Origin: Psammoneis japonica
Lineage: Eukaryota
Assembly: GCA_008632985.1 (NCBI GenBank)
Contig: QPGO01000135.1
Span: forward strand, 186,001 to 239,181
DNA: 53,181 nt
Direction of reading: 5' to 3'
This document shows, in pieces, positions 1 to 53,181 of the stretch. The position numbers were made by a program, and so were the translations under genes. The stretch's first letter is position 1. Every line of letters begins with the position of its first letter. The notes beneath the pieces are model-generated. The model saw only the letters and a list, made by a program, of their open reading frames with translations. It had not been told where the DNA came from and searched no databases.

Positions 1-413
1 AACACCAGACCTGAAGCCAGAGACCCAAATCCAGGAACCCGGATTTGGAGCTCTAGAGCCACCACTCCACAGGGAGACAAGAGGCCACACACAAGAGAGA
101 GGGAGAAAGTCAAGGAGAAGCAAGAAGAGAGGCAAGGTGAAGGAGGAAAGGCAAGTGGAAGTGGCCAAAGCATGTGGCACTGTGAGAGCGGCAACACTTG
201 GCCTGGAGACCGGGCCAGGGAGAGAAGAAAATGAGTCAGGTGTGAATGCCAAGCAAGGGGAAGAAGCATGTTGTGAAGCCACACTGGCAGGGCTGAGAGA
301 CAGTCCATGGGATTGGGCGACAGACCCCACCAGTTGCTCTGAAGACATGCCAACTGCCCAATGACCGCAAAGGTAAAAGAAAAACCAAGGCTGAGTGTCA
401 AGGAGTGCACCAA

Positions 414-2421
414 TCATGGTTTGCACCATTGGGGAGCTGACAGTGCAGAAACAGTCATGCAAAGTAAAACTTGACAGCATCTGAGTTCCAGTGGAGACAA
501 CAGGCCGCATCTTTGATGGGGCCCCCAGCATTGAAGAGAGCAACAGCTGCTGTTGCATGGTTGGGGTGGGAAACCAGGCATTTGATGTGCTGACGCAAGC
601 AGTGGGAGGGATCCAGATGTGCTGCTTTGCAGGCATTGCACAAGAAGCTGACACATGTTTGCTTTGAAGGAAGGTGTGCAAGCCTGATGGCGAGTTCTGA
701 AAGGCTCCTGGGGGCTCATCCAGTGGGATTCTGAGTCTCCAAGTGTGACCAATGATGGCTTGTGTGGCTTTCACGGGGCAGAAAAAACCATCAAGGCAGC
801 GGCAACATCAAATTGTGAAGTTCTCCTTGCTCTTGTCATGGCAAAAGAGAAGGTGGAGTTCTGTGGCTTCTTCAGTGAGCTTGTGATGGGGAGGCAGGGC
901 TGTGAGATTGGAGGTGTAGAATGTGAAGTCCAATGTGATGATTGCAAAGGGCACTCTTCCATTCCCTGGCTTCAGGGTTCCAAGGGAGCATGGCAAACAC
1001 TTGACCTTTTGGGATCTTGCTCTGAGCACGCTCTGCAAGGCAGAAACTGGTGAAAAGGGAAAAATTCCCAATCTGTGATGGCAGCAAAAAGATCCAGAAA
1101 AGTGGCTTCTTGTGAGGCCAGCTGGGCTTGGCACTTGAGTTCCATGTGCCCATGCATCTCCCCAGAGATGGAATGTTTTTTGTCATGCTTTTTTCACCAG
1201 GTCCAGTGCTGGTGGATGATTTCACCAAAGAAGGGAAGCAACTGTGACTTCCCATTGAGTTCTTGGCAGATTGGAGCATCGATGCCAAAGTGATGCTTCA
1301 ACCAGGTGCCTGCAATGTTGAGACAGCTGACAAGGGAGTCTTTGGCCAGGATGGTTGCATTGTGGAGGGACTCACCCTCAGCAAGGCTGAGCAGGTGACA
1401 GCTGAGAATGGGGATGGTCTGGGTGGCCATTGGTTTTGCAAGACTGATGCTCAAGCCAGCACGCAAAGTGACCAGCGTGAGACTCAAAAGTTGTGTCATT
1501 TGCACTGCGGACATGTCCTTGGTCAAGTCTTGTCCAACAAGCAATGAAATCACATTGCCAAGCTCAGAGGGGACATGGCATGCTTGCACTGTTGAGAGCC
1601 AGAAGCATTGCTCTGCAATGGATGCCCAAGTTGGGTGGTCCGCTGGGTGCAAGAGAGTGTCCGCCTCATCATTGGTGAGGCCAGCTGTGAGGCTTGCTGG
1701 TCGGGGATCCCTGAAAATCAGTGGCAAACAGAAGAGCATTGAGAAAGTGAGCAAGGCACTGGAGAATGGGGCGGTGTGTACAACTTGTGCATTCAACCAT
1801 GAGAGCGTGCTTGTGTTGTCCAAGCAAGCATGCAGCATCTGTCCACCAACTCACACCGCACCATGCTGCCAGAAAATCAGGGCCATGCAGAGGTTGATGA
1901 TGATTGCAATGAACTCCAGCACGTTGATGTGGAGCCCCTTTTTGTCAATGAGGGGCTCCTGCATGCTCCTTCATTGGGAAGCCCCATTTCACAAGGTTGG
2001 CTCAACTGAGGCACCACATGAAGTTGAACTCCAGGCTCCAGCTGCAAAGGCCTGCATGGGAAGCATCAGAGAGAACCTCCTTGGTGTGGTCCTGGGGCAC
2101 CAGGCAACCAACACAGCACAACCAAAAGTGATCACAGTGTGGCTTGACTGGCTTGTTGTGTGGAAGCTGCAAATCACAACAGGCTCTCTTGGGCATGGTG
2201 ACCCAGCTGTGGCACCAGAACTCTTTAGAGGAGGCACGGGCTGCTTGAGCACTGATTGCTTCAATCAGGGCCGTGGCAATGCACAGGGAGAAAAAAATGC
2301 CGGTGGGAGTGACAAAGGAGGCATTGTGCATGAGATGCCAAGCAGCTGTGCCATTTCTCAAGGTGTGTGCCAAAGGCGCCCTTTGCACATCCAGAGCTTG
2401 TCCAAGATGGCCCAAAACTGG
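414..2421 (-). mobile_element. Decayed tyrosine-recombinase retrotransposon (DIRS/Ngaro-like): RNase H plus tyrosine recombinase; 5' part truncated by a TRIM insertion
   Basis: Minus-strand motifs: 'VLSDASHAGLCSWS' (ORF 2002..2415) and 'GLHINVLEFIAIIIN' (~1890-1937) match DIRS-type RNase H. 'LVSHPNHATAAVALFNAG...LHWNSDAVKFY' (455..643) is a degenerate H-S-x-R...R-W-x-S...Y recombinase C-terminus. Frameshifts and stops present; ends approximate. Confidence 0.75.
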
Positions 2422-2599
2422 TGCAACATCCAGCTGCTTACAAGAGCCAATGCATCACGGCGACGTGTCACAGCCTTTAAAAGTCACAAAGGTCATGACA
2501 AAAATGACCTTTTGTGTGCATGCATTCTGCATTGTGAATTCACAGCAGAGTGGTTCATCACGTAACCATTGGGCAGAAGGCCAGGGGTTCGAAACTGAG
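2422..2599 (+). mobile_element. Truncated TRIM copy (110-bp LTR 2422-2531 plus tRNA-like A/B-box segment)
   Basis: Aligns with 24146-24325. TG...CA LTR, followed by CAGCAGAGTGG (A-box-like) and GGTTCGAAAC (B-box-like). Interrupted at 2600 by a Copia LTR. Confidence 0.75.
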
Positions 2600-2779
2600 T
2601 GAATGCTGACACACTGTCACGAACACAGGCAGTTTATGTGCTGTTGGCGATTGGCCCACTGTCGCTTGTTTGGTGGTCCCAGTGGTGCAACATCTCACAA
2701 TTCTAGAACCTGTTGATGCTGTTCAACACTCTGTCTTGTCTTGTGCCCAATTCTCAGCTGTCATGGCAGCATTTGTTCA
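2600..2779 (+). repeat. 5' LTR of Copia family A (~180 bp)
   Basis: TGAA...TTCA ends; reverse complement of 4604-4787. Followed by ctttGTCAGAGCCA, resembling an iMet PBS core (ATCAGAGCC), and then a gag ORF. Confidence 0.7.
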
Positions 2780-3269
2780 CTTTGTCAGAGCCAATGCGCT
2801 GTGATGTTCATCACCTGGAATGGGCATCACGGATGGTGCAACGGCATCATTGCAATCGATTTTTGCAGCAAGCGCCATGTTGGTCCCATGGTTGCTCGTG
2901 CAATCGCTGAGTCCTTTGTGCGCACATCAACATTCATGGATGTGAACGACATGCTCTTGGAGACCAGAGCTGTGATCCGTCAAGTGGATGGAACATGTTG
3001 GCAAAGACACACAAACATTCGTGATAAAGACAACACAATGGTTTGTGCATTGAGGTCCATTGTTTGACTGTGTCGTTTAACCAAAATGCGTTGTCAAACT
3101 GCTTGGACAACATACATGTGGATGCATGTCTGTTGGAAATTATTGCTCAGGGGCAATCTTGCCTGCTCGCGAGTTTGCCAAGTAGAAACTGCCAAATCGG
3201 CACGAGAACCACACATTTTTCTCATTTTTCTCCCCTCACACAAGTGGATGCTCACGTGTCGAAACGCGA

Positions 3270-4603
3270 GTGACTGTTGACATACCTGCCGCAGCCTTTA
3301 CTGCTTGTCTTACACATTGTGGATACAATGCGCAGACACGTGCCTGCACAGCCGCTCATGGCTTTGCTGCTGTCCAGGACCTGGAACAGGTCCCTTTAGC
3401 AGAAATTGCCACAATGACCAAGGGTGTTATGAAGGTCATGGATGCCACCGCCAACCCTCAAGTCTGCTTCCCACACCTGGCGAATCGCAAGTTCAAGGCC
3501 CTGCATGCATGGACTGACTGCTGCAGAGCCCGAAATCAACAGCCAACTCCCGCTCTCTTTGCTGGTGACACTGTTGGGACATGGACGGCACGTCTCACGG
3601 AATTGGAACAACTCAAGTCAGCGGATTCGGATGTCAACTCGGTGACCAAGATGGTTGTGGAACTCAAGAATCTACATGACTGGCCCACCTTCCAAGAGTT
3701 GCTGGAGACTGAACTGCACCACCACAGCAGCACTGTCACTGGAGCACCCCTCATCTACCTCGTTGGGGAGCATGAAGAAGTCACCGACAATGTGTTGGGT
3801 GCTGCCTGCTCTGCCATTGACGAAGACCTTGTTGCCACTGCCCGACTTGCAGGAGCACAGCACACACAGGACAGGCAATGCCTGTGTGATCTCCTGAAGA
3901 AGTCAGTGACAGGCGGGCCTGGATGGGCTTTTGTCAAACCTTCCAATCGCAGTTGCGATGGTCGTGCTGCCTTCTTTGCACTGAAGAGACAGGTGGAAGG
4001 ATTGGCTGCCACCACCACCCACAAGAACCATTCTTGTGCACAGATTGCTGCCGCAAAGCACACCGGATGGGGTCGTTTTACTTCTGACCAGCACATTCAA
4101 TGCCATCAGAAGGCCCACAACAACTTGTCGGAGCTAGATGAACCAGCAGCCAAGACCAAGAAGGTCTCTGACTTTCTCAAGGGCATCTCCGACCCCAGGT
4201 TGGAGACTGGCAAGAGTGCAGTGGACGGTGATCCGGTGAAGCTAGCAGATTTCAAAGCATGCCAGCAGTGCATGAAGACTCTGGTGGAGAATGCCAAGAA
4301 CCACAATGCCGACACTCGCGGAACAGCACCCGTCCAACGCCGCAACAACCAGTGTGGAAACCCTGGTGGCAAGCACCCACCTGAGAAGGACAAGCCCAGG
4401 ATCCGGGCAGGCCATTGTCCTGTTGATGAGTGGAATGCTCTCGACAGTCCTGAGCAGGAGCAAGTTAAGAAGCTCCACGAAGCCAACAAAGCCAAGAAGA
4501 AACACAAAGCAGCAGCTGCATCTTCGGAGGCTGAGTCGGCCGATGCCGAAACTCGTGCTGTTAAAAAGGTGGCTAATGCTGAGCCTGAACCTGCTGATGA
4601 ACA
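3270..4603 (+). pseudogene. gag: Copia family A gag (CoDi-like), hypermutated and 3' interrupted
   Basis: 450-aa ORF with 'GPGWAFVK...DGRAAFFALKRQ' and 'KKVSDFLKGISDPRL', typical of diatom Copia gag. Only 2 Tyr. Runs into an inverted LTR at 4604. Confidence 0.75.
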
Positions 4604-5554
4604 TGAACAAACACCACCATGACAGCTGAGAATTGGGTGCAAGACAAGACAGAGTGTTGAACAGCATCATCAGGTTCTAGAATTGTGAGATGTCATGCTG
4701 CCGAGGCCACCAAATGAGCAATGGTGGACCAATCGCCAATGGTGCATAAACTGCCTACATTCGTGACAGTGTGTCAGCATTTTTTCAGTCCCCTCAAACT
4801 GACACTGGCTCCGCTTGGGCCAGATCGACAGACAAATGCAACCTGATGCTGCCCCATTCCAGGGCAGTGTTTTCATTTTGGGGATGGGAAAAGCTGCACC
4901 TGCATGGCAAACCTGTTCGGTTTGTCCCCTTTTGGGACTCACCACAGGACATGACTTATGATTTCCCGGAGCTTTGGTCCAGGCAACAACTCAGTTAGCA
5001 CGTCCACTAAATTCGTGCTTCCGTCTTCCCAAGCAATGCACACTGTTCCAGTGGCTTGTGCCTCACGAGTCCTGTGACAGGCAATTGCATTGTGCTTCTT
5101 CTTCAAAGTGGACTCTGGTGTAGTTGAGTTCTTGAAGACAGCCTCATTGTCACAGAAAACGTCAGTGGCCCCATCCATGGGGATTCCGAGCATCCGAAGC
5201 TTGTGATGCAAGGCTTCAATTTGCTCCACTGCAGTCTTCATAGCCACAAACTCCGACCCAAAAGTAGAGGACTCTGCGGTGTTCTGCCGCTTAGAGTGGC
5301 ATAAGATGGGCACTCGTTGGATAAATGTCAGGATCCCAGTGTGGGACCTGCGCGTCACACGGCATCCGGCGTGATCAGCATTGACAAAGCAAGCAGTGGT
5401 CACGCCATTCCCGCGTGCCTCCGGCATGTTCGGCTGCATTGGTTCAGCTGCACCAGGGTGACATTCTTCCCAATCGCACTTGGTAAAAGGACTCTCATCA
5501 AAGACAGGCTCAGTGTGGTTGAACACTGGCGCAGACTTAGAGTGAGCCTTCAAG
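4604..5554 (-). mobile_element. 3' end of Copia family A in reverse orientation: RNase H (4939-~5550), PPT (~4789-4799), 3' LTR (4604-4787)
   Basis: ORF 4939..5571 has 'FVNADHAGCRVTRRSHTG', 'ESSTFGSEFVA', 'FCDNEAV', 'LKKKHNAIACHR'. Minus-strand tttgagggga lies just before the LTR. Confidence 0.85.
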
Positions 5555-5740
5555 TGCTGTCCCATTTGCAATCAAGTGCCAAGCTTCCTGTCTGGTCTGC
5601 AGAGTTGTGCGGGCACGTTCGAACCCTTGGCTGTTGATGCCTTGGGTTGCTTGAGAGCAGAGCAATGGGTTGTAAACCCCTGCTGACAAGCCAACCAGAG
5701 GTGGACAAATCTGACAGAATTTGAACAAGAATGACTCACT
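5555..5740 (-). repeat. Deleted LTR fragment of Copia family C
   Basis: 5555-5708 aligns with 15176-15335 and, inverted, with ~29122-29278. Confidence 0.65.
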
Positions 5741-5800
5741 CTTGTCCCACTCCATTCTCCAGCTGATTCCAACACCAATGATGCTGCATGGATCAATGCA

Positions 5801-8800
5801 GTGCACATCACCATGCATGAGTCTCTTCATGACTCTCATCCAGTCTCATCTGACTGTGATTGTGGCACTTTCGAGGTCAATGCCATGCACTTTGAGAAAT
5901 CAGAATGCTGTGGGCAACTTGACACTGGTGCTTCTATCTCGTGCACGGGTGAATGTGACCTCCTTCACTCCCATCGGGAATTTTCTGATGAATTTCCTTG
6001 TCCTCTAGACATGGCCCCTGCTGTAGGATCCAAGGCCATTCCCCATGGTGTTGGTCATCTGCACATCCCTGCCGAAATGGACAATGGTTTTGTTTGCATG
6101 CGGAGTTGCTGCCACCCCGCTCTCTGTTCAACTCTTGTCAATGAATGCAATTTCCTTACTGCCAATGGTGCACGTCGACAAGATTGTGTCACTGAGTGCA
6201 TTCAAAAGTTCCACGACCTCAGAACTTGTCGATTTACTGCGAAACGTTGTTTACGGAAGAGTCAGGACGTCCTCACACGTGGACAACTCATCAATGGAAA
6301 ATGTTTTACTGACCCGTTGATTCCGCCTCAGACGACAGATGCAATTGACACATCGATTGCTCAAGTCAAGGTGGATGACCCTGAATTTGCTGATGAATGT
6401 AATGCTGTCACAGCGCACCTTGTTGAAACACACAAGGATGACAAGCAGGAAGCCCTTCATCAAGAGAAGAAACTCATTCCTCGTTGCCATCAAGACCTGG
6501 AATTCCAGGAATGTGTCGACGACGAGGCTCCAATCCAGTCTCTCAAGGCCAACACCAAATGCTTGCTGTGGCATCAGCATCTTGGTCACCCAAGTGATTC
6601 ACACTTATTTGATGCTCACAAGCATGTTGATGGAGTCCCCAAGTTCTCCAAAGGTCAATCTCCCCTTGACACTTGCCCTGCGTGTGTTCAGGCGAAGCAG
6701 ACCAAGACACCTGCTGGACCTGACACTGCTCGGATGGCTGCTCAACCTTGTCAAGGTCTTGCTGTTGACTTCTCTTTCTCCGGCATGAAGTCTAAAGACT
6801 CTGAACATGCTGTTGATTGTGTTGGTCTCAATGGGGAGACTTGTTGGACACTTGTCTACAACCATTGCTCCCAACATCTCCATGGTGCTGCTCGTGTTTC
6901 CAAAGCCTCGCCGATTAGTTGGCTCAGCCATTTCTTGGACGAACACTCGCCAAATTGTCCTGACAAACATGTGTTTGTGGACCAGGGTGGAGAATTGAAC
7001 TCAAATCCTGAGGTGCAAAGACTTTTTGAAGATGACTTCAGTTGTGACATGCGCCCGACTGGGAAGGATGCCTCCAATCAGAATGGCCCTGTTGAACATG
7101 CCCACTTGACAGTGGCGAATGCAATTTGAGCGCTCTTGATCGGTGCCGATTTTGGCCTCATGCATTCCATCATTGTCTTTGGATTAAGAATGCTGTCCCG
7201 CCCAAGGACAAAGATCGTTCTCCTTTGACAATTGCCACAGGAAAGGTGGATAACTTCAAGGATCTCCGCACATTTGGTTGTCGTGTGTGGGTGCGCTGTT
7301 CTAACCGACGACCCGCCAAACTCAAGTCTAACTCGCGCAAGGGTGTGTTTCTTGTTGGTTGCCTGCCTGACACCACCAAGAATGTCTTGTGGCATGATCC
7401 AGTGACATCATGCATCAAGATTGCCAAGCATGATCATTTTCATGAAGGCATGAATGACCTCCCTCCTGACAAGATTCCACCTGATGTTGTTCATTTACAA
7501 CGTGTCCAGAATGGTGAACCATTGCCTGCTGAACCATCTGAAACAACAGTTGATGATTTTCATTTTACTGGCAATCCTTTTGCCAAGACACTGTCATGGA
7601 CATTGAAAGGATTGAACTCGGACAGCTCCTGTGGCATGACCCTTGACACCAATCCGCTCTACAAGCAGGTTCATTTGTCGGGGATCAACAGTGCGAGTCC
7701 TGCGTCATGCCCATTTTCATCTTTGAAGGCCACGGGGAACAAGGCATTGGGCACATGCATTGCATCGATTGATGGTGCTGACATGTTCACCCCCTGCATG
7801 AACTCCAACGGCTTCACGAGAAGGGCACGGAAAGTTTCAATGTTGTGTTTGCACCTGAGCGGCGCCTTGACTCTCATGAATTACAACGTGCTCTTGTCGA
7901 GCACAACATTTTCTCCCCGCCTCCTGCACCTGATGAGGACCATGTCCCTGAACTTGCCATGGCGGACATCATGCACATTGCTGCGTTGCTGCATCCGGAC
8001 ACGGATTTCTCCGATGTGACCCCAGGTGAACATGTTGAGGAACCGTTTGTTGACTGTGAGATGGCCACTGTCAACCTGTGTGCCATTTCTTCTCACACTG
8101 TTACACCTGAGGAGAAGGCCATTGGCAGTTTTGCACGTCGGCATCTTAAGAATTTAGCTGCTTGGCCTGAATGGCTTGCTGGTGAGAAGAAACAACTTGA
8201 CCAGTTTCATGATCTTGGAATGTTTGGTGCACCCATCCGACGACCACCGGGTGCTGTTGCACTTCGCCCTCATTGGCAACATCAAATCAAACAGGATGGT
8301 GCTCGACGCTCCAGACAGTGTTGCAATGGTTCCCCTTGGGCTGCCCCGGCTTTACACCGCATCCGTTCAACACACTTGTGGTGCATTGAACAACCGATTC
8401 AGCGTCTGTTTTTTGCCATCGCGGCTTCTTTGTCCTGTCGGGTCCACAGTGCAGATGCTCAAGATGCGTGTGCACACTCACCTTGTCCTGCCAATCCTGT
8501 GTACATTGCCATTGACGATGTTTGCGTGAAATGGCACAAGGAACGTTTTGGCATTGACATTGATCATGATGTGGTTTTGCCAATGCGTCATGCCCTCCAA
8601 GGTCATCCTGAATCGGGCGTCTTGTGGGAGAAGCATGTCAACAGCGTCCTTGCTGACGCCAAGCTACTTTTAAAAAGCACCGCACATGACAAGTGCATCC
8701 ACACCTCGACGTTCAATGGAAAGAAGATCCTGTCACTCTGCCAGGTCGATGATTTCTCTATCGCATGTCCGGAGGAATCTTGTGCTGTTGAAATTTTTGA

Positions 8801-9105
8801 GTTGATTGGAAAGGCTCTTCAGACACCGTCTGAGGACAAGCCTCCTTTCAAGTGCCTTGGCCCATGTGATGCTTTCAATGGTGTTGACATTCATCAGTGC
8901 AATGATTCATTGTCTGTCACCTGTCACACCCATCTGGACCATGTCTTCATTTCCCATGGATGGGATAGACTGGCTGAGGGTGAACTTGACACTGATTTCC
9001 ATGCTGTGCCCATTCCAGTTGAGTCAATTGGTTCACTTTGCCGCAAAGTTGGTCCCATGGAAGGGATGGCTGAGCATGATGAACTGGCAAAACAGGCTGG
9101 TTTCA
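5801..9105 (+). mobile_element. pol: Copia family B pol remnant (protease, GAG-pre-integrase, integrase, RT), truncated before RNase H
   Basis: 'QLDTGASISCTG', 'LLWHQHLGHP', 'VDQGGEL', 'SNQNGPVEHAH', 'LRTFGCRVWVR', 'ALQGHPESG', 'QVDDF' in ORFs 5801..7129, 7126..8019 and 7845..9203; frameshifted. Confidence 0.9.
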
Positions 9106-9242
9106 TTGGCATTTTGCTCATGGTGCAAGGCAGGAAAAATCCTGGTCGTGCACGCCTAGAATCGCAGCATGTTTCTACTACAGAAAATTTTTGTCAAAGT
9201 TGAGCTCAAAAAGTTGTCGGACCAAAAATGGCGGTGCCGGCT

Positions 9243-10332
9243 TGTTGCAGCTCACAAAATGATCGAACGAAGAAAGAATCAATGGCACAGAGAAATTGTG
9301 ACCAGCACAAGGCCTCAACCTGTCAGAGCACCAAAAGGACAGAGGCAACAATGGGTCAAAGACTCCCCAAAGACTGGGACAGTGATGCAACACATGCACC
9401 AGTGATCGAGAATGAGAGGATCTCGGATGGAGATCCACGAGGCCATCTAAAAGGGTCTGTCCATCAATCCTGCGGTGCAGTCTGTCTGCATGCCATCATC
9501 CGGTAGACTGACACCAGCATTGATGACATCAGGTGGACACGGCAAGCAGAGCTCCAGCCCAGACCATTGCAGGTGCCCCTGTGAATGATGGGGACATGTG
9601 TTCCAGGGTCAGGAACAGTTTTTGGTCTGGCCAGGTAGAAGTGCCTGGTCTCATGCCTGTGATGGCACACCCAGATGTGCAGACACCCAGATGGCTAAGA
9701 CACTTGGTTGGTGTGACTCGAACCCAAGCCCACTTTGGCATTTGTGACAGAATGTGCCACCATTGCTGACAGATTTCCATTCCCTGACTGAGAAATGGAG
9801 TGATCTTCCAGCACTCATGCCATTGATTTGTCACTGTTGCTGTTTGCTGTTTTGTTGTTCATCGTGCAGGCTGACTGCCAAAATTCCATTCTTCTTAGAT
9901 TTTTGTCACTCCCCATCAACCTGAAACTGTGAATGTCACTCATCCATCTCTTTTCAGTGGCTCCCAGCTTTGCTGATAAATGAACCCCAGAATCAACTCT
10001 TCTCACCACTCATGCATTTGTGTCATTGCAACATTCTCATTGCTCGATGACAGCTCAAGGTTGTTGACAAGGGTCATCAAAACTGTCAATCTGACAGAAA
10101 TTGAAAATGACTGGGTGGAAGAATGACTCCTTGCTGCTGTCTAAACAGCAGATGAGCATCCATGCAGAGACTGTTGCAGGAGCTGAAAGACTGGTGTTGT
10201 TGACATCGGTGCCACTGTTGTCATTCTTGTGAGCCGTGTGGTTTGAAAGCAAACTGCATCGCTCGATGCGCACGGAACTGAGAGCACACATGATTGTGTG
10301 TGATGAACTAAAATCTTGTTCAAATCCTGTCA
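9243..10332 (-). repeat. Long LTR (~1.1 kb) at the 3' end of the minus-strand Copia C-type element
   Basis: On the minus strand the PPT 'aaactggggag' is followed directly by TGACAGGATTTGAACAAG at 10332. The first ~260 bp match 28336, 32162 and 52781. The 9250-9560 part is similar to 27505-27800. The distal end is uncertain. Confidence 0.55.
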
Positions 10333-41159: not shown

Positions 41160-44100
41160 TAACAACGTTTTGACCCTGATGAACATGCAGCAGAGGTTGA
41201 AGGATGGAAAGGTTGCCAAGAAGAAGAAGATCCTCACCAAACATCTGGAATGTGTCAAGGCTTGTGCAGAGACTCATGCCTTGGCAAAAGGCATGGCACA
41301 AAAATGCCAAGAGTTGGTGGAACGTGAGCTCCACTCCACCTTCAAGTGTTCCTGCAAGAACACAAATTGGGTCAAGTTCTGCAACCTGGCAATTGTGTGA
41401 TCACATGTTCATGATCTCACACATCCATGCCTTTCCCGGGAAGCCAAGGCAAAGTTTGTCTCTTCTGCCAAGAGGAGGAAGGAGAGCAAGGAGTCCTCCA
41501 GTGTGTCGGCTGGTTCTCTGGCACCTACACCACCCACTTGGCCGATGCCCTGTGTGCTGCCAGTCCCTCCATCAGCACACTTGCCTCCCAGTTGCAACCG
41601 TTGGGTGACGACAATGTCAAGTCGTTTTCAGACAGTGAGCCATCGTCTGCAGGCGAGTTGTTGTTTCATGATGACCCCATTCCGAAGGACCCTGACACAG
41701 TTGCTGTTGATCCATCCTCAGGAGTTGCTTCTGCAGCATCTCCATCAAAGCCAAGCACATTGGCAAGCTCCACAACTTCCTTGTCAATCGGTGATTGGTT
41801 CCCATGAGGTTGTTGTTGCAGCTTTGCATCACCTGCAGATGTTGTGAGATGTGCTCCTTGCGTCTGTCAAGATGTGCTCCTCGCGTCTGTGTTTTTTATG
41901 ATCCAGATGACAATGATGAGGACAACGAGCAATCCACCAATCCTGAGTTGAGCTTGCATCATTCTCCAACTGACTGTTGCCCACTTGTCAATCTATGCCA
42001 TCATCTTCACTCCTTTGAGATGACGCAACCACTTCCTTCTGCTGCAACTCACAATCGAGAGCCAGTGGTTGTCCCCCAATGGCTCAAGGCATCCAGGATG
42101 ACACCACCATTTTGCCCTCTTCCTCACATCTCTGGCAGAAACACTTTGGATCTCTCCAAGTTGATGTCATCATGATTGCCCGTTTTGCACTTGAACATGG
42201 CTGTTCCAATGCCCTGCGTGATGAGAAAAACAAACACGACAAGAACAACAATGATGATGGGTTCAACCAGGAAGAGAAAAAGGATTGGATCAATTTTGGT
42301 GCCTGTGGTCAGTTGCACAAATTGCTTGATGACAGTGAGAAAGTCCCAACAAGTGGGTTTTGGAGTTTTCAAGAAAGAAAAAGATGTTGTCATTCGCAAT
42401 CAGATCAAGTCTGTGATTGCGGACATCTGTGATTCCATGCAGAGGTGCCATGATGAGCCAGAAGTGGAGCATTTTGGCAATCACCTTCAGTGCTGCAATG
42501 CATGGGATGGCACTCCACGATGGGCTTGGTTGCAAAGCAGCAAGGAATGAGCTTTGCATTGTCCATGTTAAGATTGTGCTTGATCATGTGAAGATTCGTC
42601 CAGATGATCAAAACCATGTTTGTTGCAGATGCACCAAGACAGGAGCTCTCCTCTGTGTTTTCATCCCAGACAAGTTCAGGAACGTTGTTTCGGTCAAGTT
42701 CCTCGCCAACAGCCGCTGACGTGTGGGTGAACATTTTGACAAGCATCCGACATTGTGACCATTGCAGACAATGATGCTGAAGCATGTCACCACCATAAAT
42801 CGCACCTGCAAGGAGTTCTCCTTGATGTGCAAGGGTCCTCATGGTCCACCTGGAGATTTGAACCACCATCATCCCCAGAACATGATTCTTGACAATCATT
42901 GCCCATGCAAGAAAAAGGCCCTCGACAAGGCTGGTTTGATTCTTGTAGATGGGTTGGAGTTTCCAACCTCTTGCATCCGGGATTTGTGGTTGTCCGTGGG
43001 GATCACAATCCTCTTTCTGCTTCGAGATGCACTTGGAATCCACAAAGTTGTGAAGATGGCAATCATGGCTTCTTGTCAAACCAGTTTCCACTGGTTTTTT
43101 CACATTGTGGCATTGAGTGCAAGGAAGAGTTGACTGAACCCAGTTCCGATCCCACCCTTGTCTGATGCCAACTTGCTGGGAAGCTGTTTGGCACTGCCGC
43201 CGGAAACATTGGAGTTGCTCCACATCGTCTGAACCCCAGCGGCTGTGACTTTGTCAAGACTTGCTGCAAAGTTTCCTCCGTCACTGGCCACAAGAGGAAA
43301 TCTGATGAATCCACCTGCATGAGAAGCAACAGAAAGCACATGTGCCACGTCTCTTTCTCCTTTTTTGGAGAAAGAAGTTCTTCCTGATGATTCTGACATT
43401 TAAGAAATTCTCAGAGATTGTGAATCCAACAATGATGATGCTGAAATGGATCTTGCGGGAGATGATGATCTTGGTCTTGACGGCCTCCAGATGTCAGGCA
43501 TCACAGATGAAATGGTGGGTGTGAATCTGGATTTGTTGAAATGGATTGACAAGCACACCGGAACTGCAGATTTCCATCATGCCATGCTGGAGAGGCAGTT
43601 CTGGCTTGCACTTTTAAGAAATTCCCAAGAGGAACTGACATCAACAAGTTCCGTTTAATTGTGGTTGTCCAAATGCCAGTCGGTGCCAGAATCATTGTTC
43701 ATCCCCATGCTGATTTGAGAAATCTTGTTTGTCCAGTTTCCAAACTTGACACTGCCAAGCAGTTGGAGCACTTGGACCCAAAGGATTGTGCAGCGTGTGC
43801 TGACTTGCTCATGGTCAAACATGGAACAAAGCGTCACAGTGGCGATGGCTGGAAAAAGGGATCGAGAAGGCATTGAAGGAGACTGATGGAGCGGCGATGG
43901 CCAGAGAAGAAATCCTTGAACTGGCATTAAAGACAGAGAAGCTTGCGCAGTTGAGGCCAACATGGCTTCTCCAACTGAAGATTGTGCGGAGGCTCTCATG
44001 GTGGCAGAGCATCGTTTCCAGTGACATTGGAAGAAAATGGTTTTGTGAGCCCACCACTGATGTAAGTCCACCACATTGTCTGCATGGCAGTTGCTCTAAA

Positions 44101-44289
44101 AGTTGCATTTCTCAATTCCCTCAGCACTTTCCCATCTCAACATCATTTCCATTATCCAATCATAAAAGATCTTTGCCCAGTCCAAGTGGGGTTTAATCAC
44201 CATCACTCGGTGTTCCCTCCTCTGCTTTTAATTGCGCAATTGGGGGGGACTGGGTCTTTGTGTTGCTTGGACATGCAACAGAGAATGCT

Positions 44290-47200
44290 GTGACACATGT
44301 CGAATGTACACTGACATCCCGCATTGACGGTCTTCTGGAGGATTGGAATTCTTGAACACAATGAGTGAACAATCTTGCATCCCCGAAACTGGACTCAGTC
44401 ACCCCTGTGGAGGCTGACTTGCAGTCAACAGAGTGAACGATTGCCTTGGCAACCTGACAGGAATCCTTGTAGAATCCAACGACACATGCAGGGTGTGGTT
44501 TGCCAGATGTGCATCGTCCATGTCAAAATGGACTTCCGCCCAGTCAAACCAGGGGCCCTCTTTGGAACAGCACTGTGGGCAAGCTCGGAGGTGGTCACCG
44601 TTGGCAAGTTTTACTTCTGTCCATGTGTCGAACCCAGGCCAGTCTGGCTCCAGTTCTTGGACAGCTTCAAAGGAAGCTCGGCATGGCGTGCCCATTTTCT
44701 CACCAGCCAGGATTTTGTTCCCATGTTCATCAAGTGCAGATGCATCATTGAAACAATTGCAACAGGAGACATTGTGTGGCATGCATTGGGTCACCTTGGA
44801 TTCTCCATCACCATTGGCAATGAAAGAGGCATCATCTGCAAGACCACCAACTGCTGGGATGTCTTCTGACTTTTGCATGGCAATCTCATCAAAGCCCCTT
44901 CCACACAGAAGGGCCTCGCAAATTCGTTCACATGTCTGTTGGAGGAAAGTGGCCTCACTGTCTTGCAATGGTGCTTCACAACACAATTCTCCATTGGGTG
45001 AGAGAACTGGCATGGATTTTGAACTTCCACACATCCTCCCCTTCACATGTTTCCTCTGTGACCAACAGATCCACCTTCTTCTTTGACACAGTTTTGCACA
45101 ACCTTGAGTCAACACATCTCTTGACATTTGAAAGCATTCCCGGATTTCTTTGTAGAAGACAATCACAGTGGTCCCTGATGATGGGACATGCAACAGAGTC
45201 TAGGATGTCACGGGGTGGGCAAAAATCATCCTTCTTGCTTGTGACAGTTTTCAAAATCTTCCACGATTTGACAAACAACTGATCTAGCTGAAAAACTCAT
45301 TGAAGTCATCCTCCAGCAAAAAAGCAAATCCGTGGAGCTTTGGGTGCTTGTTGACACACTGGATAATTTCCGATTTGCAATTAAAAGGATCTCTGGTGCT
45401 GTGGACCAAGGCAAAAAACATGTCCTTCCTGTTTTTGTCACATTCTTCCTTGGTGCAGGCTTCCTTTTGGGCCACCTCCTGAGCAGCCTTTCTTGCATTT
45501 TCCCTGTTGCGGCAGCCTCCCAATTGACTCTTTGTCACTTGTTGTTGCATCCATTGGCAGTGGTGGATGCATGAGATCTTTTGCTCCTGCTGCAACTCTT
45601 CATGTTGGAAGATGAACTGTTGTCAATTCCTCAGGAAACGTTGGAAGATGGCTTGTCGCTTGCCTTTGCCTTTTTGTTCTTGCTCTCCTTTGGTGGTTTG
45701 CACAGGGTGGCAAGTTTTGAGGCAGAGGGAAATGTTTCACACTTCTTCTTCTGTTGTTCATGTGCCTTTTCCATTGTCTCACATGGCTTGAGCAATTGCA
45801 TTGCTGCACACAGGCAGAACAGTGAACCCATTTTTTCAGAGTGGGTCTGGAGAGTCATTCTGCTAAAGCCAGAACTTAAGCAACCTCTTGGGCATTGTGC
45901 CAAGGCCATGGACCTGCAGCTTCCAACAACAGCTTTCAGTTCCATCTCAAAGTTTTCTTTCTCGGTCTTGGTCAGTCCAAAGTGTGAGACTTGCATGACA
46001 TTCTCCGCACCACCAGCTTCCCAGGAATGGAGGTGATTGTCAGCTGCAGTCGACACCGTCAAAGGCATTTTGCTGCAGGTGCATTGTGTGCAGATGGGAA
46101 AGAAGGCTGCTGCAAGCTTCTGTGGTTGTCTCTTGAGGCAACCATCCAATGGACTGTCCTTGCTGACTGCTGCAGTGGAGCCGGTGTGTCCAAGCATGAG
46201 CTTGTTAAGATGGGACACAATCTTCACATTGATTGGAGAACACAAAAGGCCTGGCTCATTGGTTGGACGGGAAGTGTTTGTAACATCATTGGCAGAACAC
46301 ATGTAGAAGCACTGCACTCGACCATCACCACCCCCATTGGTTGCTTTCCATCCACAGACAAAGTCTTGTGACTTCTGGTCCCAAAATGTCAGCCCTTGTA
46401 CAAGGAGGATGGGCATGAGCTGGGGAACACCACCCAAGTTTAAACCATCATGAGGGGGGGCTCAGCCTGCAAGGCCTTCAAATCATCCAAGAGAAAAGAC
46501 AACATGTCATGGCAAGCCTCCATGTTTGAAGCAGAAGACTCACCCGCTTGTTGTTGCAGTGAATCATCTTTGTTCACATTGCCATTCTCATCAAGTGTGC
46601 CACTTGCCCCCCCCCCCTTGTTTGCACTCAGCATGAACCCCAGGTGATGCCAAGCACAATCATGCTCCCACACATGCCTCTTGGCAAGAAGAGTGCAAAA
46701 CCACCAGGGTTCGAGGTGATGCCTTTGACAGGCATCAGTCCCTGTCTGATTGGCGTGCAAGCTGATTGGCAAGAGCAAGTCTTTCTCACAGTCAAAGTCC
46801 TCAGGGAGGTCATCACATGTGTTGGAGCACCATTTGTTGGACATGATCTTGCCAAGATCATGCTCATCAACAGGAACAAACTTGTGGAAATGTGCCTGCA
46901 TGGACTTGCTCACATCAAGATTGTGCTGGTCATCAAACATCGAGTGGGCGAGCAAATCACTCAACATGTCCTGCATGCAGAAGCAAGTGACTTTTCCATC
47001 CACCAATGATGTGAGTGTCGGGCTGGAGCAGGAAAACCTTCTTACAGAGATTTTTTGCCAACAAATCCCACCCAAGACACTGGGAACAATTGAATTTCCA
47101 CTTCTTGCAAAATGGTGGTGACAGGGCAAGCAACTGCCCACAAAATTGATGAGTGGCACCGGAATTGTCACACAGCACAATCAGCTCCAATGAAGCTTCC

Positions 47201-47631
47201 TCTGCAATTGAAAAGGTTGGTGGATCAGGTGCCTTGGTGTCCAAGGGATCTGATTTGGCAGTGGTGGGTGGGACGGTGGGCAGATCTGGGGGCAAGGTGG
47301 ATTCTTCAGAAGACTCATCCAGAGAAGAGGACAAAGAAGCAACAAGAGCACCAGGGAACATTGTGCAAGAAGAGGAGTTGTTGTCATGTTCATCGTCCTC
47401 CTCCTCCTCTTCCTCCTCCTCTGCTTCTTCATCGGGAGGGGGGGGTGTGGGCTCCGAGTCTTCTTCGGGTGGGAAACTGGGTGGGTCATCATCTCCATTG
47501 AAGCAAGTGCTGGGATTTGCTGATTCATCTTTTTCAGAGGCAGCAACAGATGACTGACAAGCAATTTGCTGTTCTTGGAAAAACAAAATGGTGGCTTGCA
47601 ACAACTGGCTCATTTCAGTTGTGGCAGACAC
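44290..47631 (-). pseudogene. Plavaka-type (CACTA/CMC-related) transposase, decayed
   Basis: Acidic N-terminus; 'LLLPISLHANQTGTD...LEPWWF...WHHLGFM', 'CHDMLSFLLDDLKALQ', 'WDQKSQDFVCG'; C-terminal 'LRACPQC...PWFDWAEV'; several stops and frameshifts. Confidence 0.7.
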
Positions 47632-48149
47632 ACTGGGACGGGCTGCATTTTGCCTGCATTGGCGGTGTCAGTGGCAAAAAGGCATGCCAAGCAAAGAGTC
47701 CAATTAGAAAAGGCAGGCTGTGGAAGTGGGGTGAAGCAATTTGATGCTTGTTCACAACCATTTGTTGGCAAGCAGATGTCTGATTGATCATTGAATCAAA
47801 TTGTTGAGTGGAGACTGGGTTTTGTTTTTGAATGAGACTCAATTGGCATGCTGGCAACAGCCATTAGAGAGTTGGCCATAAAGAGACATTGCACATCATG
47901 GCACACACACATTCAGACATTGAAGATGCAAAGATTTGAATTGGATGGAGGATCCATTTAGATTGGAATGCAGATGCACAGCCAAAATAAAAAATGTGGG
48001 GGAAACACCCTTTTCAGGCAGGCAAAAAATGTGAAGAAGGGAAAAAGACAACCGTTGCATGCACATCATCCACAAGACTCAACCACATCTGTCACCTCAC
48101 TTCTGTGTACTTCAGCACACACTGGAAAAATCACTGCAGCAGCAGCGGA

Positions 48150-49547
48150 GGACAATGGTCATTGTGGAGCTGCAGATGAGTTCTGCTGAATGGATGGTGG
48201 ATCAAGCCAAGGTCATGAAGGACATGGCAAAGGTGAGAGAATGTGTCAAGGAAACATTGTTCCTTGGTGTCACATTCATGTTCAACAACAAGGAAATGGA
48301 GAAAATGGGAATGCTCCACAGAGATTGTAAACAGAATTGTGGCCCCAAGATGATGGACAGGATGCTGCAGGAACCACCCCAAGCCAGAGCAAAAATGCAC
48401 CTGCGCTTCCTGTGGCTCATGATGAAACAAAAAAAGATGCATCAGGAGTGGCTGGCAATGAAGAGGTCAAATGCATGCCAGGCACAGCAGGAAAAGTTCC
48501 ACAGTGAGTGTAAATGGAGGATGCAACAAGAGCAGCCCCATTGTGCTGTTGCCAACAGTGTTGTCTCTTGCTTTCCCTGCCAAAAATGAAGCTCTTTGTG
48601 CATGCTGCAATGACAACAATTGGATCTTGCCATCCATGGAAAGATTCCAAGATCACTTGGGCAACCCAGCTTTGCAGATGGCATTCTACGACTGCATGCT
48701 GTGTCCGATTGTTGGAGACACATGCTGGAAAGAGTGCATTTCCAAGGACAAGAGGATGAGCACAGCATGTGCTGAGGCGTTTGCTGCCCACATGCTCCTC
48801 AAGAACAACTGCAATGCATGGTGTGCCAGCTGCAAGAGCCAAAACAAGGATGGGACTTTGATGTCAGATTACGACATGGAGTTGGTTGATGATGGAGGCC
48901 TGACGGACTAAGAGGGAAGCAACGACTTGTGCAAGACCATCATGCCAGACCTTGTGACAGCCCAGGAGAAAGATGACCAGGACAAGAGTGTGTTTGTGCT
49001 GCTCCAGAAAGATCCACAAGAGCCATCGGAGGAAGGTGCATCTGTGCAAGAACTAAAACAGAAGTTCAAGGACACAAGGGAAGAGTCCATCACAAAATGG
49101 GATGTGATGGTCAAGAAGATCAGAGACAAACCAAAGATTGCAGCACAAGTCATGGCTCTGACCAAGGTTGCAAAAGTGCTCGTGGACATCCAAAACAATG
49201 CAGATGCATCCAGCAAGAAGAGAAAGGTTGTCAGGACACTCAAGCATTTCACAGTGGCAAAGCCAAAAGACACAGACGGAAATGCGGGACCAAGGGGGAA
49301 GTGCAAGACACCAAAGAAGAGCAAAGGGTGGTTGCCAAAGGCCAACAAGTTCTTTGTTGACATGGTCATGGAGATCAAGCAAGATGTTGCAAGCAGATGC
49401 CTTGGCCGGTGGGAAGAGCTCTACAAAGCTGTTGCAACTGAGCAAGATCAACAGGCTGCAGAAGAAACACAACACAGCTCGGATGATGAAGACAACCACC
49501 AGGTCAACTGTGCCAAAATCTGTGAACTGGAGTTGGCGGCAGTTTAG
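48150..49547 (+). pseudogene. Transposon accessory gene, divergent from the Plavaka-type transposase
   Basis: ORFs 48059..48589, 48471..48911 and 48927..49547; homologous motifs with 17276-18510; possible intron near 48509-48585. Confidence 0.6.
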
Positions 49548-50836
49548 TCAAGATTAACTCAGTGGCAACAACTTGCATTCACACTTGTTGACAATCGATT
49601 GCAGCAGAGACATGCAACAAATGGATGGGACAATGGAAATGACTGTTTGAACATGCAAGTCAACTGATTGACTTTGACAGCAAAGATTGAAAACGAATCC
49701 CAACACTGCATTTGGTCATCACCCAGTCGGCAATGACAAGCCAAGTGAAATCCCATAAAGCAACTTGTTTGGCATTGTAAACTGATTGAGTTGCAGCTCA
49801 CTCATTGGGATTGATGACTGTTTGTTGATGTCTCCAGACACTTGTTGGTTTGCATGGACATTTGTTCATTTTTGGTCACACCTGTTTGTGACAAACAGGT
49901 GTGATTCATGTTGAACAGCAATGATTCATTATAAAAAAATTTGTGTGCTGACACTCACACACACTGTCTGCAACATTGTTCATTGGTCCAACCACAAGAC
50001 AATTCATAGAAACGGCCCTCTGATGACTTCTGCAGACCAGCACAGGTGGTCTGTGGGTGATGAATTTGCTGTCTTGGTGAGTTCTTGGATGACTGAGGTT
50101 AATGACTTGGCTTTTCCTCCAACCAATGGTCACGTGCATCCATCTCACTGACAAAGCCTCCGAGGCAGGGGCCACCAGATTTGACAGTGAAGCCAAGGTC
50201 TCTGAAGCATGCCTTGGCATTCTCCAGGTTGCACTCTGGGACTGCTGGGATGTTCTTGGAGTTGTCAGCAGGGCAGTGCTTGCATTTTGGGATCTCTTAG
50301 ACCAATGGAAGAAGTCCTGGTCCAAAGTTCAGGCAATTCACCAAACTTGTGCAAATGATCTTCCTCTGGAATCCTCCCATTTGGGTGTGTCTCCTAAAGT
50401 GCCTCAAACATGGCATCTCAGTCAGAGATGTGCCCAGCTGCCCCCCCCCCCCCCTTGGGTTTCCTCATGGCACCATTCCATTGAATGTCTTGGCATGCTG
50501 CTCTGGCATCTCCTCTTTCTGATTGGTTTTTGATTGTTTTCAGGTTGCAGCTCAGTTGACTGAACTAACATCTTGTGCTTGTCTGCGTCCCAATCATCCA
50601 AGCACCTGGTGAGCAAGGTTCTAATGTCCCCAGCCCCTTTTTCATTTCAATCTTGCTGTGAAACACAGCTTGGTGCACCGTGAACCTTTCTGAGTTCTAT
50701 TTTCACATCTTGACTGCATGCAGCAACTCTGCCAATGCTGCAATGAACTGTTTTTCAATGGCACCATGTGGAACATTGTTTCATGGTGATTGATGGGGCA
50801 CTGGCCGGTGCCAACACTCTTGCCAAATTTTGCCGA

Positions 50837-51054
50837 CATGCCACCAATCAGATGAGAACTTTTGTTGAGATGATGGGTCTCACCATGTGCCTCATGTGTG
50901 ATTCATTCCACACCCCAATTGAAGTGGTTCGGTGTGACATTGGGCATGCCACCAATCAGATGAGAACTTTTGTTGAGATGATGGGTCTCACCATGTGCCT
51001 TGTGTGTGATTCATTTTCCACACCCCAGTTGAAGTGGTTTGGAGTGACATTGGG
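50837..51054 (+). repeat. 108-bp tandem duplication
   Basis: catgccaccaatcagatgagaacttttgttgagatgatgggtctcaccatgtgcct... at 50837 and 50945. Confidence 0.9.
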
Positions 51055-52780
51055 GTCGTCTTGTGATGGGACAATGACTCTCTCTGGGTCTTCTCCTTCC
51101 TCTGGCTGACTGCTTTCTTCCCCTTGAGGTGGCATCAACCACCTTGCCATCTCCACCTGCATCAGAGTCCATTCTTGATTGTTGGGTGTGGAGTTTTCTT
51201 TGCTGGCTTTGTTGGCAGCCTTGTCTTTTTCTTGTTTGTCAGTTGCGCCAGGGGCATTGTTGATGAGTTGACAAATTTTCAGCTGAAGTGAACTAGATTC
51301 TGGGGAGGTTTGAAGTTTTCATAGTTTCTCATCTGAGTTCCTGTTGCTTGGGGTGCAAGTTGGGAGTCCTTCCTTGCCTGGCCTTCTTCCACTTAGAAAA
51401 TTCTTCACATTTGTCATCTGTCTGTTCTTGGCTGATGGACTCCTTGATTGCTGTCTTTCCATGTGTGGGCATCTTCTTCTCACATGTTTGTGAAAGTGGG
51501 CCTCATCACAGCCATTGTGCACATCATCATCCAATGACCATTGGCGACCATTGTCCATTGCATCTGTGGCCAATTGCCAACCGCATCTGTCCTCTCCACT
51601 TTTTGATCTCACCACAGCAGATTTGCTCACAATCTAGATGATCACTCGCTTTTCACATGCTCTCAACTTTTAAGCAGTGCTTCAACTTTCTCTGTCACAA
51701 ATGCGTGCATGTTGAGCATGGACCATGATGGATCCACCATCCAAGAAACCCAAGATCTCCCGGTCAGATGGGGGCCTGGTGAATCCTCTGTCCAAGACTT
51801 TCACCCCAAAAACATGCATTTCACACACTGATGGATGCAACTCCTTTGTGGCACACCCTGCCACATCTCCTGACATGGGTGACACCAAACACTGCTTGGC
51901 ATTTTAAATCAACAAGAGCACCACATCCAACTCATCTGGCCTCACCAACTCTGATTGCCTTGCAGTCATGGGCAAACTGTGCAATTCTGCCAGTCTTGTC
52001 AACATTTCAGAGGAGGAAAGGAAGCACACAGGGAAGCCAGCACTGCACAACCCTGCCACCTTGACTGTCATGTCACACCACAATGTCTCCAGCACCACAG
52101 TTGGCAACTGTGTCAATCTAGCCACCAGGATTGCCTGGCTTGTCCAAGATCAACCTGTGGCTGATTGTTGTCCAACCAAATGGGTTCATGCACATCAAGG
52201 TGAAAGGTGCTGCAAACCCACCAAGTCTTGACAACTCTGTCAAAGAAACCAATGTCATCTTCTTTGTGTGTTTGTCCATGAAGGATCAAGTGACAGTCAA
52301 CGCAGCTGGCAACAATGTCCACTTGTGCAGGTTTGAAGTCTAAAGCGCCCAGTGACTGTGCAACCCTTAAAGTGGAACCCTGTCAACAGCTCATCTAAAT
52401 AGATCAGGGATTGTCAAGCCCCTTGACTTGCAGAGCCTAAACTTTCAACAAGCTCATTGTGCATGCTAGCTGCAATTTCATTCTGAATGCAGCATTCAAA
52501 GCTGTTGCTCCCATTTTCCTTGATGATCCATGCAAAACCCTCAGCAATGCACATCAGACTGCCACCCACCCAGACAGTGCCATTGTGTTGTCAACAGTTG
52601 TCACCAAGCATCATGACAACTGTCACGTTGTTGTCGTGATGTTTCCCAATCATCCCTCAGCAGCACATGGGGCAAAGCAATCCTCATTTCCATGCTTTCA
52701 TGGAGAACCTCACGGAAGGATCAGATTGGTGATGGAATGGAGTCCAGTGGGTTTCACAGACATGGTGAGACCACATCATT

Positions 52781-53181
52781 TGACAGGATTTGAACAGGAT
52801 TTAGGTGCGCGCGAAGCATCGCGCGCTGTTTAGTTTACCGTGCACAGTTTTGTGTGCTTTAGTTCCGCGCGTTCACGCGCGATGTAGTTTGCTTTCGAGC
52901 CACAAGGCTCACAAGAATAATAACAGTAGCCCGATTATACCGACTTACACGTCTTTCGGCTCCTGTAACGGTCTCTGAGCGGAGACTCATCTGCTATTTA
53001 GACAGCAGTAAGGAGTTATTGTTTGAATTCTTGCCATTTGCCTTCAATTTCTGTCAGATTAACAGTCTTGCTCATTGTCAACCCATTGAGCAACCGCCAT
53101 CGTCGTCGTTGATTTACCAACGACGCTATTTCAATTCTACGTGGACCTCCGTATATATTCTACATACATCAGCAAGTCTAC
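52781..53181 (+). repeat. Start of a little-mutated long LTR related to the Copia C LTRs (runs off the window)
   Basis: TGACAGGATTTGAACAGG start; ~280 bp align with 28336-28600; retains TpA and CpG. Confidence 0.75.

Follow-up and report, generated by a model that had tools for sequence, protein, structure and literature searches.

Evidence for repeat-confined, post-integration hypermutation of TpA to TpG and CpA in a diatom-like nuclear genome

What could strip a dinucleotide almost completely from repeated DNA and yet leave it in place in the genes alongside? The question is raised by a 53,181-bp stretch of contig QPGO01000135.1 (positions 186,001–239,181, forward strand) in the Psammoneis japonica assembly GCA_008632985.1, referred to here as the window. 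It holds one unique gene island, taken for composition as positions 32410–37000 (4.6 kb), and 48.6 kb of repeats. A first-pass annotation, made from the letters alone, described the repeats as poor in TpA as well as in CpG and rich in TG/CA, and inferred that a second process introduces A:T>G:C transitions at TpA on both strands, in repeats only. The analysis set out here makes it very probable that TpA in the repeats of this diatom-like nuclear genome has been hypermutated to TpG or CpA, at the level of DNA, after integration and within the repeats only.

Over the whole window (49% GC), the observed/expected ratio (o/e) is 0.19 for TpA, 0.43 for CpG, 1.67 for CA and 1.62 for TG, and the other twelve dinucleotides lie between 0.94 and 1.12. 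For the 48.6 kb of repeats taken alone, the values are 0.15 for TpA, 0.38 for CpG, 1.66 for TG and 1.71 for CA, with the remaining twelve at 0.93–1.13; TA and CG alone fall below expectation and TG and CA alone rise above it, so that the composition first described is reproduced. The island has o/e values of 0.64 for TpA, 0.93 for CpG and 1.21 for TG/CA, and the genes therefore do not share the depletion. The GC fraction of the repeats, 0.45–0.53, is similar to that of the island. In absolute terms, there are 481 TA dinucleotides in the 48.6 kb of repeats and 190 in the 4.6 kb of the island, and the longest TA-free run is 862 bp, where independence of neighbouring bases would give one TA per ~15 bp. 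Counted in six frames, the repeats contain 2429 TGA, 372 TAA and 251 TAG stop codons. The scarcity of TAA and TAG gives rise to many long overlapping open reading frames (ORFs) on both strands, which are not evidence of genes. The tyrosine contents noted at first pass were recovered exactly: 2 in 450, 1 in 442, 1 in 452 and 1 in 418 residues in four repeat ORFs, and 8 in 182 and 8 in 308 in host exons.

The direction of the change was read from protein homologues. The top 40 of 120 Copia homologues were aligned to the window by tblastn, giving 337 high-scoring segment pairs, and columns covered by at least eight homologues with at least 70% agreement were used (1221 columns). Tyrosine is retained in only 2 of 50 conserved Tyr columns; 19 now read TGY (Cys) and 18 CAY (His), and the other 11 comprise five Phe, three Asn and three others. 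Columns of Phe, His, Cys, Trp, Gln, Gly and Pro are retained at 80–96% and the rest at 49–79%, with the exception of Arg, which is kept in 27 of 79 columns and has become His in 12, Cys in 10 and Gln in 8, the pattern expected of CpG decay. Where the ancestral base at codon position 1 was A, G now stands in 32 of 51 cases after T and in 10 of 157 after other bases (Fisher p=5e-16). By context, TA has become TG in 19/50 and CA in 18/50 cases, and A>G is rare elsewhere (CA>CG 2/84, AA>AG 0/68, GA>GG 2/120). The first-pass annotation had made its interpretation depend on an enrichment of T>C at TpA, and this is what we find: 18/50 before A, against 2/73 for TT>CT and 0/54 for TG>CG. We conclude that the process is one of TA>TG/CA, strictly tied to TpA, and that it acts on both strands with near-equal outcomes (19 Cys and 18 His).

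Other comparisons extend this picture. A family of Gag-like ORFs represented in the window, unrelated to the Copia set, has eight Tyr columns at a 60% agreement threshold, of which one is kept, four are Cys and two are His. The homologue sets themselves have ordinary Tyr contents (medians 2.6–3.5%), and a search for low-Tyr outliers among 120 Copia and 150 Gag-like database homologues returned none, probably because predicted proteins favour intact copies. Differences between the window and its paralogues, recorded at 2839 places in contigs from the sequencing run X1, comprise 592 A>G, 552 T>C, 515 G>A and 478 C>T, with 72–108 in each transversion class, and thus an excess of transitions. The TA that survives in the window is scarcest in ATAT (5 of 1275 YR steps) and most frequent in CTAA/TTAG and TTAA. 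In the related metagenomic loci treated below, events per opportunity, scored by the base following the A, are 0.226 for C, 0.192 for T, 0.148 for G and 0.125 for A; the events are not independent and only the trend is of interest, a slight bias towards a pyrimidine 3' of the A, in agreement with the contexts of residual TA.

The timing of the change is revealed by the two long terminal repeats (LTRs) of a Copia-type element, element B, which borders the island on its left. The LTRs differ at 43 places over 865 aligned columns: 15 differences are of CpG type, 11 are of TpA type, 8 fall at four double sites with TG in one LTR and CA in the other, and the rest comprise 2 further transitions and 7 transversions, so that only 9 of the 43 lie outside TpA and CpG sites. 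Of 22 TA sites still visible in the pair, 11 are common to both LTRs and 11 are mutated in one; for CG the corresponding counts are 10 and 15. TpA in these LTRs has therefore been mutated about as fast as CpG. Because the LTRs were identical at insertion and now differ at TpA, the mutations arose in place, which rules out editing solely before integration. Together with the Tyr columns and the sequence context, this supports the second process postulated at first pass.

The restriction to repeats is seen most clearly at the borders of the island. X1 contigs of at least 80% likeness were aligned to positions 20001–40000, and their summed depth is 260–75,000 over the depleted parts (360–75,000 for 20001–32673) and a flat 29.2 over 33.3–36.7 kb, from which it follows that the depleted DNA is repeated and the normal DNA unique. 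At the right border, dense TA gives out at 36806 and the unique contig at 36824; contigs from paralogues begin at 36834–36838, and no further TA occurs before 37274. At the left border, the signs of repetition cease at ~32,560 and TA is dense from 32692, the TA-dense span thus being 32692–36806. The switch occurs within ~30 bp of the repeat border on the right and ~130 bp on the left, and no spread of TpA depletion into unique DNA is visible at either.

The same X1 contigs bear on whether the letters are real. Six of them, 485–3674 bp in length, match the window with 0 differences at depths of 29–36, in repeats and genes alike. Five lie in repeats (23300–23786, 25298–25843, 36846–38029, 38004–38688 and 39393–39877) and the sixth covers the island (33151–36824, depth 29.2). 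Exact contigs, built from 31-mers, at such even depth suggest accurate reads. We regard this agreement as supportive rather than decisive.

A wider view of the process is given by related Copia loci in metagenomes. Contigs scanned with the Copia alignment yielded 80 loci, whose DNA identity to the window is only 63–65%, as would be expected of other families or organisms. Their TpA o/e ranges from 0.01 to 0.83 (median 0.63) and their CpG o/e from 0.50 to 1.20 (median 0.71). Segments of reverse transcriptase (RT) from 47 of these loci were aligned after L017 and L069, identical or nearly so to L016 and L042, had been dropped; the rows are not independent, since some that are almost identical remain. 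In this family, ancestral sites were defined for TA (72) and for CG (72). Retention of TA runs from 64/72 in L005 to 0/72 in L043, where the outcomes are 38 TG, 25 CA and 9 other, and retention of CG is 40–56 in the 23 full-span or nearly full-span rows, 27–41 in shorter rows and 44 in L043. The last of these loci combines a TpA o/e of 0.01 with a CpG o/e of 0.69. Divergence at other sites is ~9% in L014, which keeps 40 of 59 TA sites, and ~11% in L043, which keeps none. In these related loci, TpA loss is thus specific to the copy, does not behave like a clock and is uncoupled from the decay of CpG; within the window, hardly any repeat is spared.

Measured against the 28 least-depleted copies, the spectrum of L043 shows A>G at 42/64 sites after T, 14/102 after A, 18/121 after C and 2/93 after G, and T>C at 23/61 sites before A. 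A runs test found no strand-coordinated runs of TG or CA outcomes in any of nine copies (z from −1.6 to +0.5). Identical TG/CA outcomes are shared by L043 and L080, both free of TpA or nearly so, at 47/59 sites and by other pairs at 55–76%. It follows that a copy was first mutated and then duplicated, or survives in the form of two strain variants; dead copies may still be spreading, or the community may include related strains.

One precedent for this signature was found. In mutation-accumulation lines of the rhizarian alga Bigelowiella natans, 231 of 302 nuclear single-nucleotide mutations fell in integrated nucleocytoplasmic large DNA virus (NCLDV) and virophage sequence; 230 of the 231 were A>G or T>C, every one of them at TpA (Mettrop et al., bioRxiv 2026, 10.64898/2026.01.13.699255). 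The text of that preprint gives rates of ~6e-7, in some lines and regions only, describes TpA-depleted coding sequences enriched in RT and DDE domains, and proposes an ADAT2 homologue as the enzyme. The first-pass statement that no described system carries such a signature is thereby overtaken, since the signature reported is identical. Supplements aside, our literature search returned no further paper with the TpA signature and none on diatoms. The two cases, as far as the preprint's account allows them to be compared, agree in the TpA context, the involvement of both strands, the restriction to repeats or foreign DNA and, on the evidence of the related metagenomic loci, the copy-specific extent. 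They differ in host, a diatom-like stramenopile here, and in target, the inserts of giant viruses and virophages there and high-copy LTR retrotransposons with unclassified repeats here. Depletion is deeper in the window (o/e 0.02–0.3, against a Rho of 0.45 in the B. natans NCLDV region) and is accompanied by strong CpG depletion, unlike in the B. natans comparison, whereas a mutation rate has been measured in B. natans only. The window thus adds a second lineage to TpA hypermutation and a new class of target, the LTR retrotransposons.

Among better known systems, fungal repeat-induced point mutation (RIP) likewise is limited to repeats, consists of dinucleotide-defined transitions on both strands, inactivates transposons and skews dinucleotide frequencies. 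It is set off before meiosis by sequence duplication and depends on RID/DIM-2. RIP, however, changes C to T, mainly CpA to TpA, and so makes TpA and lowers GC, whereas here A>G at TpA removes it; moreover, copies of a single metagenomic family range here from 0 to 100% mutated. With a TpA o/e of 0.15 in the repeats, a GC fraction of 0.45–0.53 as in the island and the direction TA>TG/CA, RIP itself was rejected, and the TpA process is its mirror image. Deamination of 5-methylcytosine (5mC) is the natural account of the CpG loss. Diatom transposons are reported to be CpG-methylated by DNMT5 (Hoguin et al. 2023, PMC9998398), from which CpG decay in repeats is expected, and by analogy the repeats of the window presumably carry 5mC. 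In keeping with CpG decay, the repeats have a CpG o/e of 0.12–0.6 where the island has 0.93, Arg has given way to His, Cys and Gln, and there are the 15 CpG-type LTR differences. Deamination of 5mC nevertheless accounts for the CpG half of the signature only; TpA has been lost at least as completely, and its loss is separable. ADAR, APOBEC3 and ADAT2 editing offers a further likeness, in that parasitic nucleic acids are mutated by neighbour-dependent deamination. These enzymes, however, act on RNA or on single-stranded DNA in replication and leave strand-coordinated runs, whereas the changes here are post-integration, affect both strands and form no runs.

The A:T>G:C change at the A of TpA, on either strand, converts the dinucleotide to TpG or CpA; it runs beside the ordinary decay of CpG to TpG/CpA while staying separable from it, destroys Tyr codons and TAA and TAG stops and leaves dead elements behind. 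As to mechanism, we propose that an enzyme would edit TpA within silenced, repeat-marked or foreign chromatin. The likeliest route would be that adenine is deaminated and the resulting hypoxanthine read as G. The hits would be independent and single on both strands rather than processive runs. Within the phenomenon, once that is accepted, adenine deamination is a tentative choice of chemistry, to which we would give nearly even chances. Its main chemical rival, which leaves the biology the same, would have a JBP/TET-type enzyme oxidise the T of TpA to 5-hydroxymethyluracil (5hmU) or 5-formyluracil, which mispairs with G and so yields T>C. 5-Formyluracil does miscode, and 5hmU occurs at TpA in dinoflagellates. 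As TpA is palindromic, A>G on one strand is indistinguishable from T>C on the other, and the similar numbers of TG and CA (19 and 18) accord with either; there is no evidence here of such bases or enzymes, and the text of the B. natans preprint favours adenine deamination, likewise as a proposal. Thymine oxidation thus seems to us unlikely, though it deserves to be kept in view.

Of the three first-pass mechanisms, a TA-preferring DNA adenine deaminase and a modified T/A base are still candidates. In the other, deaminated 5mCpG in methylated repeats recruits patch repair by a polymerase-eta-like enzyme with a WA>WG error spectrum. Depletion of TpA and of CpG is indeed confined to the repeats in both cases and correlates across 96 repeat bins (Spearman 0.51, p=1.4e-7), a correlation expected from shared age alone. 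Such repair should not spare A after A, however, and AA>AG is seen at 0/68 sites against 19/50 for TA>TG, with 14/102 against 42/64 in L043; in the metagenomic family, moreover, TA retention falls from 64/72 to 0/72 at unchanged CpG retention. The absence of AA>AG and the uncoupled CpG retention make this candidate very improbable. Very improbable too is an artefact of base calling or library preparation, in which the DNA really has TA and a modified T or A at TpA in heterochromatin is called as C or G. A palindromic modification would give TG and CA at random, and the X1 data, of unrecorded platform, may be the assembly's own. Nevertheless, the X1 contigs are exact over repeat stretches of 485–1184 bp at gene-like depth, which is unlike noisy long reads, TpA-depleted relatives occur in several metagenome assemblies, some with NODE contigs that appear from their names to be of short-read style, and the elements bear transversions, indels and 5–19% divergence in the manner of old relics. 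Editing before integration, with an ADAR-like activity changing A to I in the RNA or cDNA of retroelements and reverse transcription fixing the change, would suit a set of targets that are mostly retroelements, and the Discussion of the B. natans preprint quotes a preference of ADAR for U as 5' neighbour. Yet the LTRs of one insertion differ at TpA, both strands are affected equally without strand runs, and the B. natans targets are described as DNA viruses mutating in situ; we give this reading hardly any weight. The proposal that the elements were TpA-poor from the outset, by codon usage, horizontal origin or selection, is refuted: mild under-representation of TpA is general (0.64 in the island, median 0.63 in intact relatives) and says nothing specific, conserved Tyr has been changed to Cys or His with loss of protein function, the LTR differences arose in situ, and sister copies run from intact to fully depleted. 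Its probability is negligible.

Against hypermutation directed at TpA itself, several points have to be set. No enzyme, lesion or ongoing rate was observed in this sequence-based analysis. The platform of X1 is unrecorded and X1 is possibly the source of the assembly, so that the check on the reads is not fully independent. The direction of change was inferred from a consensus of homologues and not from consensuses of this genome's own families, and the control within the window is one single 4.6-kb unique island. In L043, A>G or T>C outside TpA reaches 10–18% in some contexts (14/102 after A, 18/121 after C, 19/108 before G); divergence between lineages and decay of CpG in the reference state have probably raised these rates, which still leave room for a weaker secondary context besides TpA. 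Lastly, deamination of A in DNA has been shown for a single natural ADAT2, amphioxus BjADAT2, whose preferred motifs in the account of PMC10354150 are GAA and TCG and not TA, and ADAT2 is a candidate enzyme by fold only.

The features of the window are as follows.

1–32409, no strand: left repeat block, poor in TpA and CpG and rich in TG/CA; in 1-kb bins, TpA o/e 0.02–0.54 and CpG o/e 0.12–0.69.
3186–4619, plus strand: putative Gag-like ORF (labelled YR, for tyrosine recombinase, at 3270–4622 in the first-pass annotation); 890 homologues, the best at 44% identity; no Pfam domain.
5735–9200, plus strand: Copia-type pol relic with the Pfam domains gag_pre-integrs, SH3_retrovirus and RVT_2 (integrase, SH3-like, RT).
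10050–15800, minus strand: Copia-type element A, of the same family as element B; RVT_2 at 11393–12391 (E 1e-14); TpA o/e 0.18.
20630–23486, minus strand: Copia-type relic with gag_pre-integrs at 23088–23486; TpA o/e 0.10, CpG o/e 0.29.
27718–32409, plus strand: LTR element B, internally deleted; LTRs at 27718–28580 and 31546–32409 (863 bp), 94.6% identical.
32410–36830, no strand: gene island with ordinary dinucleotides; a repeat fragment to ~32,560 and unique DNA beyond; X1 contig 33151–36824 exact.
33262–35367, plus strand: host Kelch-BTB gene (Pfam Kelch, BTB) with GT..AG introns at 33412–33498, 34086–34163 and 34369–34436.
35756–36625, minus strand: host TLDc-domain gene (Pfam TLD, E 1e-35).
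36834–53181, no strand: right repeat block, the most depleted, unclassified; TpA o/e 0.03–0.14 (bins 37001–51001) and 0.31 (bin 52001), CpG o/e 0.13–0.71.

A Pfam scan of the 143 ORFs of at least 110 residues found, besides the host genes, Copia-type domains only. The first-pass claim that every class of transposable element is depleted accordingly stands for Copia-type LTR elements, together with unclassified repeats; its YR, non-LTR and DNA transposon labels were not confirmed, and the same scan identified no non-LTR element or DNA transposon and, in the right block (37–53 kb), no transposable-element domain. For the ORF at 1399–2562, no homologue was found at E≤0.001. The Copia relic at 5735–9200 is ~50% identical to diatom Copia polyproteins and has o/e values of 0.14 for TpA and 0.52 for CpG; Copia homologues also match at 20–23 kb (tblastn). 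On self-comparison, element A is 81–83% identical to positions 28702–31547, carries an LTR piece at 10082–10345, and is longer than the related element B and on the opposite strand. The TG-versus-CA balance departs from equality by up to ±0.16 in 2-kb bins (e.g. 12001–16000, 20001–22000 and 28001–32000) and flips with the orientation of the element: element A, on the minus strand, is richer in TG and element B, on the plus strand, in CA, and the Copia relics at 6–9 kb (plus) and 20–23 kb (minus) show a similar imbalance. This may reflect the composition of the family or a mild strand bias relative to transcription.

The ORF at 3186–4619 shows no recombinase fold or catalytic domain, and neither it nor any of the ten homologues scanned has a Pfam domain, so that the YR assignment is not supported. 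The AlphaFold model of one homologue, P0241, has a predicted local distance difference test (pLDDT) score of 83 and is all-helical; its top matches in the PDB are the capsid C-terminal domain of Ty1 Gag (probability 1.00, E 0.29), the Copia capsid and the PEG10 capsid, the capsid matches overall having probabilities of 0.94–1.00 and E values of 0.29–1.6. This predicted fold hints that the ORF is Gag-like. It is flanked by a 186-bp inverted repeat of 83% identity (2594–2779 and 4604–4789), an uncommon setting for a Copia gag; the insertion may be nested or rearranged. A unit of ~116–180 bp occurs at 24146–24261, 24483–24598 and 2421–2601 with 84–92% identity and sits in a bin (24003–24669) where the summed contig depth is ~63,000; it is a very high-copy short repeat, unclassified among satellites, short interspersed elements and miniature inverted-repeat elements. 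A 370-bp inverted repeat of 72% identity (15830–16197 and 16659–17025), with arms ~460 bp apart and no transposase domain found, could be a foldback or terminal-inverted-repeat element and is perhaps what was first labelled a DNA transposon. Within the most depleted block, two tandem units of ~110 bp and 93.6% identity lie at 50837–51054.

In the island, a 3108-nt contig (33262–36602) from run X2, which is listed as 'DNA?', omits precisely the three introns of the Kelch-BTB gene (87, 78 and 68 nt), as a spliced transcript would, and continues through the convergent TLDc gene on the opposite strand. The 3' ends of the two genes seem to overlap or abut, or else the contig fuses two transcripts. 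X2 gives no cover over most repeat bins, which we do not take as evidence of silencing. The named relatives of the TLDc protein are all from diatoms, at 46–49% identity (Seminavis, Fragilaria, Mayamaea, a Bacillariaceae metagenome-assembled genome and Pseudo-nitzschia), and those of the Copia polyprotein nearly all so (Nitzschia inconspicua, Cylindrotheca, Fragilaria); the database contained no near-identical protein for either query. The host is accordingly diatom-like and not Bigelowiella, whose proteome, presumably included in that database, would have given a match. Two Copia polyproteins, P0130 and P0146, carry the source label of a Flammeovirgaceae bacterium metagenome-assembled genome although they are nearest to diatom elements, and probably come from eukaryotic contigs misbinned into a bacterial genome.

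A signature hitherto known from one 2026 preprint, in one rhizarian alga and in viral inserts, is thus met again, in the genome of a diatom-like alga and across several metagenome assemblies, here near saturation (TpA o/e down to 0.01) and on LTR retrotransposons. TpA hypermutation would on this showing be a general eukaryotic means of disarming mobile DNA and not the curiosity of a single strain. For annotation, the loss of TAA and TAG leaves long spurious ORFs on either strand of dead repeats, and the loss of Tyr from repeat proteins weakens domain searches. For mechanism, the process offers three handles: it is separable from CpG decay, it affects both strands without runs, and it halts at the repeat border. 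To our knowledge, no natural adenine deaminase for double-stranded DNA has been described, and for that reason the responsible enzyme could serve base editing. We put forward as a serious possibility, though one we would sooner bet against than for, that a dedicated TpA-editing genome defence is widespread in protists of the stramenopile–alveolate–rhizarian (SAR) group, at least in diatoms and chlorarachniophytes; it might employ a natural adenine deaminase of chromosomal double-stranded DNA, would be independent of 5mC and switched on copy by copy, and would erase mobile DNA more thoroughly than CpG decay.

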